Shown: positions 1,346 through 62,882 of the stretch, piece by piece | How the letters are laid out: each line of letters opens with the position of its first letter | How positions within the stretch are numbered: position 1 is the stretch's first letter | Assembly (NCBI RefSeq): GCF_037042905.1 | Contig: NC_087250.1 | Span: 15,688,001-15,752,000 of the forward strand | DNA: 64,000 nt | Direction of reading: 5' to 3' | Source: Lytechinus pictus | Taxonomy: Eukaryota | Position numbers and translations under genes: made by a program | The notes under the pieces: model-generated | Told to the model about the DNA's origin: nothing | Seen by the model: the letters and a program-made list of their open reading frames with translations, nothing else | Databases searched by the model: none

Positions 1346-1505
1346 CATCGTTGTCATCATCTTTATCACATTGATTGCCCTCCCCATCACCATCGTTGTC
1401 CAACTGGCCTGTATTAGACTTTGTCATGCAATTATCACAAGCATCACCATGACCGTCGCCATCCACATCTGCCTGATCAAAGTTGGCTACATAGGGACAG
1501 TTGTC
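1346..1505 (-). CDS. Exon 29: TSP type 3 repeats
   Basis: [26 protein letters not shown]...[23 protein letters not shown]; donor G|gtcagt (alternative end 1342). Confidence 0.93.
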
Positions 1506-1833
1506 CTGGAAGGAATGAATAACGGTAATTGTTTTTGTTATGGAATTCAAACCATAATGCTGCCAATGTGAAAGACCATCCTCATTCATTCACAGTTCTG
1601 GTACGGATTAATGTCACTATTATACATCTTCAACTATATCAAATATCCAGTATCCCCCCCCCCCCCGAAAAAGTGTCATGACTAAAAATTAAAATACAAC
1701 ATGGGCCCGTAACACAAAACTTAGCAATGATTGCAGAATATTTTTCTATGACTGATTGCACCGACAATGTACAATCAACGTGAAAATCAGGCGTACGATT
1801 AACTGCTATCCTTTGCACTACAAGACCAAGGAC

Positions 1834-2075
1834 AGGTGTGTTGGCTCAGTTAGTAGAGCGTCCGTCTCACAACTGGGAGGTCGGGAGTTCAAGCCCCGGC
1901 CGCGCCAGACCAAAAGACGTCAAAAGATGAGAGTTGCTGCTACCCTGTTTGGCGGTCAACAAGTAAGGGATAGCTAAAGACCTGGCGCTGCACAGTGGCT
2001 GCCGGGCCCATGATCAATTTTCAGAGAGTACTTCTTTTTCAGATTTCATTTCAAACAATAAAATATGGATTTTCA
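1834..2075 (+). mobile_element. tRNA-derived SINE (family B)
   Basis: Box A TGGCTCAGTTAG, box B GTTCAAGCC; internally deleted relative at 46408-46567. Confidence 0.7.
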
Positions 2076-2439
2076 TTTGCAATAAACAATGAATAAAATG
2101 AACAGAAGGGTATGAAATATGAAATCATTTATGTTATTATGTTGAAATCTGTCAAAAAATAAGATTTCAATTTTTAAAAGATTATCCTTTCCCAACAAAC
2201 CTTCATGGGACAGGATGAAAAACAATGATGATGATAACTCAAATTCTAAATGTTGTAAACTGGGCAAATATTACATTGCCTTCAAGGGGCTAATTCTTAT
2301 GTATTCATGAGGTCATATCTTGGGCCACCGTGGAACAATTCCCACCAAATTTGGGTTATGGAGGCATTCACGTTCTACCACAATATAGTAAAAAAAAATA
2401 TTCAAATTCAAATTGGAAAATTTATGAAATCACACTTCA

Positions 2440-3515
2440 GTACTCTACAGCCCCAAGTTAAATCTCAGATCTCTTGAAATTGAAATCCGGATCTCATGAC
2501 CATCACCTACGTAGCTCACAAGATACACTCGCACTGCAAGTACCCCCACACAAGACTAAAGCAAAACTAGGAGATACATGTAGGTCATTTCTGATGTCAG
2601 CCCCACGACTATGGAACAAACTTCCCCTCAACATTAGGAATTCAACAAATTTACATGATTTCAACTTACAATTCTCGCTACCCCAAATAGCGATTTCGCC
2701 GAGATCCGGGAAAATCCCTGTAACGTGCATTGCATTATGGGATAGCTTTTTCGGTATTACAACTTCCTGTTCGGAAGTCCAACGCACTGTTTTGCCATTT
2801 AGATCAACAGTGCCGTCATGCACAACAACACAACGTAGCTTTCGCTCGGAAAGTTCGTGATCACAACCCTCTCTTTCACTAACAGTTTTACAGCCTTTTC
2901 TGCTAAAGTCACTAATTCTGCCTGACGCTTTCCATTGCACGGTATTCATCTGTCAGTTAAGATTTTTTTAAGTTCCGAAACTGATTTTTATCCATTTTGT
3001 GGTCGACGAAAAATTGAACGAAATGAATGCTGAATATATTTAGTGTCTAGTTGAATACGATCGTGATGTCAGGCCGGTCGCTAAATGCAAAATTTTAAGA
3101 TATTCATTATTTGTTTGAATTTTTATAACCAAATAAAAACATGAATAAAAATTATTCTCACGTGAAATATATGTTTTATTTTTATTTATAATTCAAATGG
3201 AATAAAAACTGACCAAATGTAATAAAAAGTGTTATACTCTGTACATATTACGCTGATTGGCATCGATTTCAGCGTGGTGGAAAACTCAGTATCGCGAACC
3301 TTGCGCGAGTATGATCTAAACCGGAAGTGGTGATGACGACCCGACGGAGTGAAAATTATCTCGTCTCGCGCATTATGAGATTTGTGTTCCTATTTGGGGT
3401 AGCGAGAATTGAAAACCTATCTATTCCAATAGTATGTACAGCACCTAGGCAGCTCTTGCAGCGCAATAGAATATATAGAAATAGTTTATTGCGCTATATA
3501 AATGCATATTATTAT
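2440..3515 (+). mobile_element. L2/CR1-group LINE 3-prime fragment interrupted by a TIR element
   Basis: LQVP..KTKAKLGD..SF..SAPRLWNKLP.NIR then KTYLF and (TAT)n tail resuming at 3412. Confidence 0.75.
2669..3411. mobile_element. Non-autonomous element with perfect 22-bp TIRs
   Basis: CAATTCTCGCTACCCCAAATAG ... CTATTTGGGGTAGCGAGAATTG; TSD not clear. Confidence 0.8.
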
Positions 3516-3529
3516 TTTACGTTTCTTAC

Positions 3530-3757
3530 AATTTCATTGTAGATTCTATCGTTGTCCCAATCATTGTCACAGATGTCTCCGGTCAGGTCGCCGTCAGTAT
3601 CCTCCTGTCCGCTGTTTGGGTACCCAGGACAGTTATCACTGAGGCAGTTTTTATCCGATGTATTGGTGCACCGCATCTTCAAGTCCATCTGACCATCCAT
3701 GTCGAGATCACGGCCGCAGACCAATCCATTCCCAGCCCATGCATGGTCCTCATCACA
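3530..3757 (-). CDS. Exon 28: EGF4 end and TSP type 3 repeats
   Basis: CDEDHAWAGNGLVCGRDLDMDG...DNCPGYPNSGQEDTDGDLTGDICDNDWDND, the thrombospondin signature; phase 0-0. Confidence 0.95.
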
Positions 3758-60471: not shown

Positions 60472-60662
60472 CTCTGACCCCTTGATGTTGACACCGTCCT
60501 TCCATACAGAGCCATTAATGCTCAATCTGACTCTGTATGTTGTAACCCAGTTATCATCATCAGCATTCCCTTGTAATTGTACACCTATGATGTCACGCAG
60601 GACACCAATATCTGCTTGAATCCAAGGATTGCTGTCGTCAGGAGACGGTTCTGGCATCCAAC
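60472..60662 (-). CDS. Exon 2: discoidin domain 1, middle
   Basis: GWMPEPSPDDSNPWIQADIGVLRDIIGVQLQGNADDDNWVTTYRVRLSINGSVWKD...; phase 1-0, donor gtatga. Confidence 0.9.
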
Positions 60663-60679
60663 CTGCATTGGAGAAAACA

Positions 60680-62015
60680 TCATCACTATCACCACCAAAC
60701 CATCGACTTAACCATCATCATATACCACCATCGTCATCACTATCACCACCATACCACCGCCTTCACCATCATATACCACCATCATCATTACTATCACCAC
60801 CATACTATCGCCTTCACCACCATATACCACCATCATCATCACTATCACCACCATACCATCGCCTTCACCACCATATACCACCATCATCATCACTATCACC
60901 ACCATACCATCGCCTTAACCACCATATACCACCACCGTCATCACTATCCCCACCATACCATCGCCTTAACCACCATATACCACCACCGTCATCACTATCC
61001 CCACCATTCCGTCGCCTTCACCACCATATACCACCACCATCATCCCTACCACCACCATACCATCGACTTAACCACCATATACCACCACCATCATCCCTAC
61101 CACCACCATACCATCGACTTAACCACCATCATATACCGCCATCGTCATCATCACTATCACCACCATACCATCGCCTTCACCACCATATACCGCCATCGTC
61201 ATCATCCCTATGACCACCATACCATCGCCTTAACCACCATATATCACCATCGTCATCATCACTATCACCACCATACCATCGCCTTAACCACCATATACTG
61301 CCATCATCATCATCACTATCACCACCATACCATCGCCTTCACCACCATATATTACCATCGTCATCACTATCACCACCATACCGTCGCCTTCACCACCATA
61401 TACCACCACCATCATCATCCCTATCACCACCATACCATCGACTTAACCACCATCATATACCGCCATCATCATCATCACTATCACCACCATACCATCGCCT
61501 TCACCACCATATACCGCCATCGTCATCATCACTATCACCACCATACCTTCGTCTTAACCACCATATATCACCATCGTCATCATCACTATCACCACCATAC
61601 CATTGCCTTAACCACCATATATTACCATCGTCATCACTATCACCACCATACCATCGCCTTCACCACCATATATTACCATCGTCATCACTATCACCACCAT
61701 ACCGTCGCCTTCACCACCATATACCACCACCACCATCATCATCCCTATCACCACCATACCATCGACTTAACCAATATATATCACCATCGTCATCATCACT
61801 ATCACCACCATACCATTGCCTTAACCACCATATATTACCATCGTCATCATCACTATCACCACCATATACCACCCTATCATCATCACGATCACATTCATCA
61901 CCATACCATTTTTTTCGATCACCACCATATACCACCATCATCACCACCACTAACATAATCACCACCATTGTCATCACAGTTATCACAACCACCATCATCA
62001 TAATCATCACCACCA
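60680..62015. repeat. CCA/CAT-rich minisatellite (about 42-48-bp unit)
   Basis: CATCACTATCACCACCATACCATCGCCTT(C/A)ACCACCATATACCAC reiterated. Confidence 0.95.
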
Positions 62016-62257
62016 TTGGCATAAGGAAGCAAGTGACACATCAGTCAAATTTGAGTTATTGTTTCTGAAACACCATTAGTATGTTGTACGTTGAGGCAAA
62101 ATTTGGGGAAGAAATAATCATTCTAAGGAAAAGATATTGCACAAAATATTCTGTTATATTGCATTGACGCCTATGTAAATGACGAACACACATTGCTCAT
62201 TTACAACAAATGATAGTTTTGTAACTTGCTTCCTTTAGCCAAAGTACGGCAGCATAT

Positions 62258-62770
62258 ACCATCACCACCATCATCACCACTGTCATCACAATGATCCCAA
62301 CCCCCATCATTATCATCACCATCACCAGCATCATCATTATCATCACCATCACCAGCATCATCATTATCATCACCATCATTACCACAATCATTATCCCCAC
62401 CATCGTTAACACCTTCAACATGACTTGTCCATGTTAGTCAGTCATCATCATCATCATCATCATCATCACATCATCATCACCACCATCATCATCATCATCA
62501 TCACCATCATCATCAATCATCCTCATCATCATCATCATCACCATCATCATCATCATCATCATCATCATCATCATCATCATCATCATCACCATCATCATCA
62601 TCATCATCATCATCACCATCATCATCATCATCATCATCATCACATCATCATCACCACCATCATCATCATCATCATCACCACCATCATCATCAATCATCCT
62701 CATCATCATTACCATCACCATCATCACAATCATCATCATCATCATCACCACATTACCATTGCCATTACCA
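62258..62770. repeat. (CAT)n microsatellite region
   Basis: Long CAT/CAC runs; source of the poly-H and poly-M ORFs. Confidence 0.95.
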
Positions 62771-62777
62771 TTCTTAC

Positions 62778-62882
62778 CTGATGGCCCATTCAATCTGGCA
62801 AAGGACACCAACAATCTTTCGGAACTTGCATCAAGGCTTTCATTCAGAATAGCAGAATCTTCCATACCCAAGGGTTCAATAT
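62778..62882 (-). CDS. Exon 1 (in window): discoidin domain 1, N-part
   Basis: cag|AT...TCAG|gtaaga; DIEPLGMEDSAILNESLDASSERLLVSFARLNGPSG (PLGME and ARLN motifs of F5/8C); phase 1-1. Confidence 0.88.

Follow-up and report, generated by a model that had tools for sequence, protein, structure and literature searches.

A kringle-discoidin block inside a putative divergent mega-thrombospondin gene of the sea urchin Lytechinus pictus

The mega-thrombospondins (mega-TSPs, formerly TSP-DD) were defined in 2019 by Shoemark et al. (PMC6526912), whose main text gives their plan as a signal peptide, some 1000 aa of leucine-rich repeats (LRRs) and a central region with cadherin domains, to which bilaterian members add fibronectin type III (FN3) and discoidin domains and a Cys-rich domain. 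The protein ends in a canonical thrombospondin (TSP) C-terminal region, followed by a second concanavalin A-like (ConA-like) domain. The word kringle does not occur in that main text (the supplements lie outside this scope and might show a composite architecture for Strongylocentrotus purpuratus). Here we describe LOC129263243, a gene of the urchin Lytechinus pictus that lies on the minus strand of a 64,000-nucleotide stretch of contig NC_087250.1 (positions 15,688,001 to 15,752,000; hereafter the window) and beyond both of its ends. All positions are those of the window, flanking ones being negative or above 64,000, and all features of the gene are on the minus strand. We consider it probable that the locus is one gene, a divergent mega-TSP paralogue, with a block of kringles (KR) and discoidin domains (DD) spliced into its message.

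The family is thus a known one, and the exact protein is already public, as an automated and uncharacterised prediction: P0106, an 'uncharacterized protein' of 2080 aa, all 42 exons of which map to the locus by spliced alignment at 100% identity with AG/GT borders. Its exons 2-29 lie in the window, from 60662 down to 1346, and are 28 of the 29 phase-compatible minus-strand exons (62882 to 1346) that an initial annotation had drawn from the letters; the Pfam matches and the P0106 mapping fall in the places and order proposed there. The GC content here is 29-39%. The Pfam scan covered 275 of the window's 362 minus-strand stop-to-stop open reading frames (ORFs) of at least 42 aa, the other 87 lying in tandem arrays. 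Seven of 150 ORFs in a first batch match TSP_3 (3515-3832 and 1341-1589), types of epidermal growth factor (EGF) domain (11507-11722 and 31169-31366), Ephrin_rec_like (12273-12578) or F5_F8_type_C, and seven of 125 in a second match Kringle (four, at 45704-46072, 38209-38382, 37114-37596 and 35716-36000) or F5_F8_type_C (three); the discoidin ORFs of both batches are at 21727-21987, 20753-20917, 60469-60714, 59561-59818 and 50683-50904. E-values for these families run from 1e-4 to 6e-24, and the remaining matches are weak and unrelated (SVM_signal, THAP, SoxD, PRCH, Nudc_N, ETRAMP, TctB/EpsG, zf-RVT). On P0106 itself Pfam finds F5_F8_type_C three times, Kringle three times, EGF, Ephrin_rec_like, cEGF, EGF_CA and EGF_3 (the last three at 1194-1309, tandem EGF-like domains directly ahead of the type 3 repeats), TSP_3 in five stretches (2.2e-48), TSP_C at 1639-1828 (6e-44) and Laminin_G_3 at 1838-1981 (1e-11).

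The kringle-discoidin block is about 51 kb long and consists of eight modules in the order KR, DD, DD, DD, DD, KR, KR, KR. Three are upstream of the window: KR(-1) at 82808-82536, DD(-2) at 80304-80188, 78287-78085 and 77045-76856, and DD(-1) at 75059-74943, 69247-69042 and 65220-65049. The five in the window begin with discoidin 1 (DD1), whose N-terminal exon (62778-62882, phase 1 to 1) is absent from P0106 and is followed by the exactly mapped middle exon (60472-60662, aa 10-73; F5_F8_type_C 3.7e-10) and the C-terminal exon (59629-59797, aa 74-129; 5.2e-7). Discoidin 2 (DD2) has an N-terminal exon at 57635-57772 (aa 130-175), mapped, with a phase 1 acceptor and the likeness of a discoidin start, exons at 55095-55162 (aa 176-198, exact mapping) and 51717-51851 (aa 199-243, mapped and matched by tblastn with P0057, a small Diadema setosum protein), and a C-terminal exon at 50736-50904 (aa 244-299; F5_F8_type_C 1.5e-4). 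The kringles, likewise mapped, are KR1, in two halves at 45751-45900 (aa 300-349; Kringle 4e-6) and 38223-38357 (aa 350-394; 1.7e-12), KR2 at 37125-37406 (aa 395-488; 5.7e-24) and KR3, exon 11 of the model, at 35730-35996 (aa 489-577; 1.3e-13). Tandem arrays occupy several introns here: the 7.4 kb intron that splits kringle 1 is mostly filled by one of 97 bp x ~60 (38374-44212, 5.8 kb, 92% matches), and another of 170/341 bp x 10/5 lies inside discoidin 2 (55863-57568).

Each of the eight modules begins and ends in phase 1 at AG/GT borders, and together they stand between a conserved pre-block exon that ends in phase 1 (85072-84835) and a linker exon that starts in phase 1 (33617-33754, aa 578-623). 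The single reading frame claimed for the exon chain extends to the upstream modules: exon 85072-84835, the modules and P0106 exons 2-42 join into 7833 nt that read through without a stop as 2611 aa. Models of Diadema antillarum orthologues place this block within the gene. P0106 578-2010 aligns with residues 594-1984 of P0067 and 764-2174 of P0084 at 46-47% identity, starting at the linker exon, which is the first exon common to them; the next upstream Diadema match is the exon at 85075-84854, from which the Diadema models jump to the linker and EGF exons with about 8 residues between pre-block exon and linker. Since P0067 and P0084 are collinear with the locus on both sides, the block lies inside the gene, and since both flanking exons are in phase 1, its skipping would keep the frame and give a protein of the Diadema type.

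The collinearity with Diadema runs from 152,515 (P0084) down to -42,137 (P0067). LRR_8 or LRR_4 is matched by four of 150 upstream minus-strand ORFs; LRR-like matches collinear with P0084 and with P0126, another L. pictus protein, reach 165,982 on the same strand (tblastn), and collinear Diadema matches place FN3-like exons upstream on that strand as well. From this collinearity and the upstream LRR matches it follows that the gene probably spans more than 200 kb, of which the window is an internal piece. The discoidin and kringle modules had at first been taken for an N-terminal arm; with a further kringle, two further discoidins and the pre-block, FN3-like and LRR exons ahead of them on the same strand, they are instead central.

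After the linker the chain continues with an EGF-like domain (31177-31287, aa 624-660; Pfam EGF 3.3e-7), the cadherin-like exons considered below, and discoidin 3 (DD3), the exons of which are at 24673-24807 (aa 840-884, homologue match), 21778-21971 (aa 885-949; F5_F8_type_C 3.6e-9) and 20761-20914 (aa 950-1000; 4.2e-5); a homologue search with the DD3 exon gave 43 candidates, none of them significant. A Cys-rich region of growth-factor-receptor or ephrin-receptor type follows in four exons, at 20195-20358 (aa 1001-1055, 81% identical to P0067), 17986-18048 (aa 1056-1076; tblastn with P0073), 16417-16519 (aa 1077-1110, homologue match) and 12329-12508 (aa 1111-1170; Ephrin_rec_like 4.3e-5 on the ORF, 1.5e-4 on P0106). 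The TSP core opens with EGF-like domains at 11564-11697 (aa 1171-1215; cEGF/EGF_3/EGF_CA/EGF) and 10620-10760 (aa 1216-1262; 55% identity to P0067, the exon ORF alone giving no Pfam match), an EGF_CA domain begun at 7423-7497 (aa 1263-1287; EGF_CA at 1266-1309 on P0106) and completed, with the start of the next EGF-like domain, at 5938-6096 (aa 1288-1340; Pfam and homologue match), and the end of the last EGF-like domain with the first type 3 repeat at 3530-3757 (aa 1341-1416; TSP_3 1.1e-7), before further type 3 repeats at 1346-1505 (aa 1417-1469; 4.7e-10). All of these exons, too, are placed by the P0106 mapping.

The extension into the flank that had been proposed for the lectin-like end was rewarded, Pfam finding TSP_3 in four ORFs and TSP_C in three exons below the window. 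With TSP_3, TSP_C and a second ConA-like domain downstream, and cadherin-like repeats, discoidin and a Cys-rich core before them, the proposed place in the TSP-DD/mega-TSP branch stands. No TSPN/LamG N-domain, vWC or TSR family was found by Pfam in the 275 window ORFs, in 424 flank ORFs or in P0106, in agreement with the earlier remark that no LamG, vWC or TSP1 module precedes the EGF/TSP3 core, and a canonical thrombospondin of subgroup A or B was rejected for lack of TSPN, vWC and TSR. A protease of the plasminogen/HGF type was likewise rejected as lacking a protease domain: neither Trypsin nor PAN is matched in the window, the flanks or P0106.

A protein search with the TSP_C exon gave 21 proteins, 11 of which were scanned with Pfam. 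Six long relatives (P0067, P0071, P0073, P0075, P0079 and P0080) follow the mega-TSP plan wholly or partly, with LRRs in three, cadherin in five, discoidin, EGF, TSP_3 and TSP_C in all six, and Kringle in none. More widely, 29 TSP_C proteins are among the 120 matches listed of 4566, and of these 29 only P0106 carries Kringle. The kringle/discoidin combination had been put forward as unseen in any thrombospondin; to the extent of the main text of PMC6526912 and of the other 28 of these 29 relatives this is borne out for the kringles, but P0106 exists. A database protein of the same architecture, which the initial annotation had named as the finding that would overturn it, is therefore to hand, though as a predicted and uncharacterised entry, not a described one.

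The weakest part of the domain chain is the pair of cadherin-like repeats, encoded by exon 14 at 30425-30582 (C-terminal half of repeat 1, aa 661-713, the last exon matched by the S. purpuratus model P0023), by 28096-28259 (repeat boundary and start of repeat 2, aa 714-767; mapping, profile and fold) and by 26053-26267 (remainder of repeat 2, aa 768-839; 49% identity to P0067). A tandem array of 162 bp x 12.7 lies between two of the cadherin-like exons (28226-30291). Weighing against the assignment, Pfam finds no family at E<=1 on the 181-aa stretch and no cadherin at E<=1e-3 on P0106. However, in an alignment that sets the stretch beside its counterparts in 11 relatives (A1, 12 sequences), the LDxE, DxNDxCP, DxDxGxN and AxDxGxP positions are invariant, LDxE and DxNDxCP belonging to exon 14 and AxDxGxP to exon 26053-26267. 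We take these to be cadherin calcium-site motifs. The profile of A1, searched against PDB, matches CELSR1 at 7e-98, with cadherin-type names on all 60 matches listed. An AlphaFold model of the stretch (pLDDT 74) is predicted to share this fold, the listed ones of its 35 Foldseek matches at E<=1e-3 all being cadherin, protocadherin or CELSR. Two cadherin-like repeats are thus supported at the level of family and fold, and the proposal of two cadherin domains draws on profile and model, not on Pfam. The EGF-like exon just ahead of them, 31177-31287, is present in P0106 and the Diadema orthologues and absent from the 11 canonical mega-TSPs aligned, and so marks a divergent echinoid clade.

The tree of the C-terminal region that had been called for was built on the region from the Cys-rich to the ConA-like domain of 26 mega-TSP-type proteins (973 columns, LG+G4 quick search) and rooted on two scallops, canonical TSPs being left out as outgroup. 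The locus falls with mega-TSP-type proteins: P0106 pairs with the S. purpuratus protein P0064, and this pair, on a long branch, joins Diadema P0067/P0084, each of the two groupings having support 100, while the canonical echinoderm mega-TSPs, including P0126 of L. pictus and P0158 of S. purpuratus, form a separate clade. The placement of the divergent echinoid clade among the other deuterostome clades is affected by long branches. It follows from the tree that echinoids carry two mega-TSP paralogues, of which LOC129263243 is the divergent and fast-evolving one, and not a new thrombospondin type.

The public models of the locus miss part of its 5' end and do not agree with one another. P0106 is without exon 62882-62778, the upstream KR(-1), DD(-2) and DD(-1) modules and the LRR part. 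Its first exon (61493-61520, exact mapping) encodes nine residues, MAVYGGEGD, and no signal peptide, within a minisatellite of 51 bp x 22 (60678-61866) in the intron that follows the N-terminal exon of DD1, and is probably an artefact; a second, identical MAVYGGEGD seed is found in the minisatellite at 61196. Exon 62882-62778 fits a discoidin N-terminus better: its acceptor has a pyrimidine tract of 13/17, its donor is CAG/GTAAGA, and its PLGMEDS motif resembles other discoidin starts (at a weak E-value). Directly ahead of it, 62883-62958 holds an in-frame ATG pair with a basic and then a hydrophobic stretch running straight into PLGMEDS, much as Diadema P0057 begins with a signal peptide and then a discoidin; an alternative first exon may lie here. 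At the other end, the last two exons of P0106 are unlike the homologue-supported C-terminal exon near -41.9 kb, and the 3' end of the model may be wrong or alternative. That exon (about -41,895 to -42,149, some 10 kb past the last exon of P0106) matches the C-termini of P0064 and P0067, whose matched residues include a basic run of KRRRKRS type. The N-terminal ~100 residues of P0063, an L. pictus model of 528 aa named 'thrombospondin-4-like', match a tandem repeat at -5,959 to -8,395, where an intron separates two exons of TSP type 3 repeats, and its start is for that reason probably spurious.

Whether the block is spliced into the same message as its flanks is the point on which the possible explanations part. 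P0106 joins DD1 through Laminin_G_3 in one automated model, and P0023, an older S. purpuratus model, joins KR2, KR3, the linker, the EGF exon and the cadherin exon, with identities of 72% for KR2, 65% for KR3 and 55-57% for the EGF and cadherin exons; an identity of 55-72% between two urchin genera argues for working exons. A search for sequencing runs listed 20 contig sets, each with a small share (0.05-0.09), and no RNA run, and three raw RNA runs were added by species. In one contig set whose kind was guessed as RNA (X1), three contigs break off precisely at exon borders, two at those of KR3 (35996 and 35730) and one at the 3' border of exon 14 (30423), with overhangs of 48, 40 and 59 letters. 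Bin 37110-37383 has a depth of 0.78, the value (48 x 4.44 / 274) to be expected from a contig across the KR2-KR3 junction. The evidence for inclusion in transcripts is thus good, if short of proof, and inclusion is likely. The single transcript that the initial annotation had assumed for the block and TSP exons is matched by one unbroken frame, a joint mRNA being likely only. Beside the exons, domains, reading frame, homology and collinearity observed at the locus, we infer that the whole block and the LRR part share one mRNA.

Several observations pull in the other direction. Among the 15 junction rows listed, no read or contig spans block and core or LRR part and block; in the raw RNA runs X21 and X22 the depth is about zero on the bins of KR1b, KR2 and KR3 and no more than 1-3 on those of the remaining exons, exon depth so near to nothing that the gene is evidently not expressed in them. 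Most of the depth is on intronic repeats. P0063 models the 3' part as a separate protein, P0064 is a 3' fragment model of 418 aa, and P0106 starts at an implausible minisatellite ATG with none of the LRR, KR(-1), DD(-2) or DD(-1) parts; P0106 and P0023, moreover, are not fully independent, since Gnomon models may borrow across species. The Diadema orthologue models are without the block, and together with two free D. setosum proteins, P0057 and P0036, they make a nested gene conceivable. Finally, an in-frame ATG at 62958 opens a stretch resembling a signal peptide, which continues without a break into the exon of DD1.

The intronic stretch 34096-35191 stands out in the same data. Each of the four runs covers it very deeply, the raw RNA runs at 450-520; its coverage changes sharply at 34246-34248, 34521-34526 and 35188, and loose ends are numerous. 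It has the look of a dispersed repeat that is both abundant and transcribed.

The main alternative, which we think improbable, is that there is one gene but the block, or part of it, is an alternative cassette or a product of internal promoter use. The isoforms would then include a Diadema-type skip from 84835 to 33754, forms with the modules included, and possibly a form begun at ATG 62958, which might be an LRR-less signal-peptide-DD-DD-KR-KR-KR-TSP protein. The phases allow such skipping, P0106 does begin near DD1 without an upstream exon, and the signal-peptide-like ORF 62958-62883 leads into PLGMEDS just as in P0057. No isoform, however, has read support among the rows listed; the signal-peptide-like residues may be a by-product, being encoded by the pyrimidine tract of acceptor 62882; and the strong donor of DD(-1) at 65049 (TAG/GTAAGT), phase-matched to acceptor 62882, argues that DD(-1) splices into it. 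Next in rank, and doubtful in our estimate, is a separate secreted discoidin/kringle gene nested on the same strand in a mega-TSP intron and fused to it by the annotation pipelines through read-through. P0067 and P0084, which pass straight from pre-block exon to linker, would fit such a gene, as would the two D. setosum proteins, of which P0057 is a free DD-KR protein that has a signal peptide and P0036 is a KR-KR protein apart from it, the splitting of the locus by models P0063 and P0064, the ORF that enters DD1 from ATG 62958, and the lack of junction reads from the raw RNA runs among the rows listed. Yet no module of the block ends in a stop, each phase-1 donor matches the next acceptor, and KR3, for which no separate terminal exon exists, is joined to linker, EGF and cadherin exons in the models of two species. 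A strict scan for a first exon (ATG, hydrophobic core and good phase-1 donor) gave no candidate between 86000 and 33600, while under relaxed criteria the search for such an internal start with a signal peptide gave 241 candidates, almost without exception in low-complexity repeats.

That a gene once inserted here is decaying, and that its relics, the exons of the block, are present in no functional protein, seems to us very unlikely. The silence of the gene in two raw RNA runs would agree with it, as would the state of two kringles, KR(-1) no longer having the conserved Trp that precedes the fourth Cys and KR3 being without lysine-pocket residues, but all eight modules retain open frames, intact splice sites and Pfam-recognisable domains, KR2 and KR3 keep the identity to S. 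purpuratus given above, and X1 holds spliced KR3 contigs. The reading we prefer thus remains that of one gene, a divergent mega-TSP paralogue with the block in its message. Kringle modules are in any case plentiful material for shuffling, at least 46 kringle-matching exon loci being found genome-wide (811 Mb, 368 contigs). They cluster at 14.41-14.43 Mb and at 28.60 Mb of C4 and at 15.66-15.75 Mb of C9. Thrombospondin type 3 repeats occur at four loci of the genome, two of them on C6 and one each on C5 and C7. Also in the window are an ORF with a zf-RVT match (2.2e-5) at 63484-63981 and one with a weak THAP match (3.3e-3) at 8347-8712, both on the minus strand and probably remnants of intronic mobile elements.

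The passages of PMC9736318 consulted give the lysine pocket of kringle 1 as Asp55/Asp57/Arg35/Arg71/Tyr72, and the corresponding residues were read from an alignment of the window kringles to plasminogen. By that definition KR1 keeps the equivalents of Asp55, Glu57 and Arg71, with Trp at 72; KR2 keeps Asp55 and Arg71, with Phe at 72 and the second Asp shifted by one place; and KR3 has no acidic pair and Pro at 71. Because the pocket residues are kept, KR1 could, and KR2 probably could, bind lysine side chains or C-terminal lysines, while for KR3 a structural role is the likelier one.

The product is most likely, in keeping with the account of the family by Shoemark et al., a secreted glycoprotein of extracellular matrix or adhesion, both its secretion and all its ligand binding being predictions. 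Its upstream portion would follow the conserved mega-TSP plan of LRR, FN3-like and pre-block exons; eight phase 1-1 modules between two conserved phase-1 exons would be spliced into the message in this lineage; and the conserved plan would then resume with linker, EGF, two cadherin-like repeats, discoidin, Cys-rich region, EGF-like domains, TSP type 3 repeats, TSP_C and ConA-like domain. If it lacks a coiled coil it would presumably be monomeric, as the main text of PMC6526912 has it for the TSP-DD of Ciona. The conserved core may be pictured as a calcium-loaded TSP signature domain (EGF/T3/lectin) with cadherin-like repeats and a ConA-like end, to which the added arm would bring extra sites, its discoidins binding ligands such as glycans, lipids or those of collagen type and its kringles 1 and 2 binding proteins in a lysine-dependent way.

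The central regions of mega-TSPs are thought to vary by domain shuffling, and this locus shows the process in detail, with eight symmetric phase-1 modules set between two conserved phase-1 exons, present in Lytechinus, at least partly in Strongylocentrotus, and lacking in the models from Diadema. Should the mature protein contain the block, kringles join the repertoire of the thrombospondin superfamily, in which no kringle-bearing protein is described in the literature searched (which excludes the supplements of PMC6526912), echinoids are seen to carry a second, fast-evolving mega-TSP paralogue, and there is a testable case of a matrix protein gaining new binding arms. A more speculative possibility, which we hold only tentatively and think rather unlikely, is that camarodont urchins duplicated a mega-TSP and captured a kringle-discoidin cassette to make a new kind of matrix protein, with the first kringles of the TSP superfamily, that couples a lysine-dependent capture of ligands, as in plasminogen, and a glycan or collagen binding of discoidin type to a calcium-loaded TSP domain. 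Were that true, its roles might include coelomic clotting, wound matrix and tube-foot or larval adhesion, and the cassette might be a regulated splice option.

Set beside the mega-TSPs as the main text of PMC6526912 describes them, the gene shares the EGF-like and TSP type 3 repeats, the TSP_C and the second ConA-like domain, the central discoidin and growth-factor-receptor-type Cys-rich domain, the want of TSPN, vWC and TSR and, probably, the central cadherin-like repeats and the LRRs encoded upstream; it differs in its four kringles, four extra discoidins and extra central EGF, and from the canonical echinoderm members by its long branch in the tree. P0106 is identical from exon 60662 to 1346 and onward, with the order DD-DD-KR-KR-KR-...-TSP_C-LamG3. 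The D. antillarum proteins P0067 (2048 aa) and P0084 (2238 aa, with LRRs) are collinear from linker to ConA-like domain and have the EGF of the clade in common, but no kringle and only one discoidin. The canonical L. pictus mega-TSP, LOC129263455 (P0126, 2911 aa), is of the same family with the same order of core domains, 45% identical over the core, but belongs to the other clade and has 11 LRR_8 stretches, one discoidin, no kringle and no central EGF. The three window kringles align to K1-K4 of plasminogen, in the plasminogen/apolipoprotein(a)/HGF group, at 3.8e-94 over the set, in contrast to which the window ORFs have no PAN or serine-protease domain by Pfam. Among the free-standing discoidin-kringle proteins of echinoids, D. 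setosum P0057 ('inactive carboxypeptidase-like protein X2', 318 aa) has a discoidin starting PLGMEDG and then a kringle; it differs by its own signal peptide, a Thr/Pro-rich tail and an identity to the block modules of 33-57%, and by its own ends is a separate small gene.

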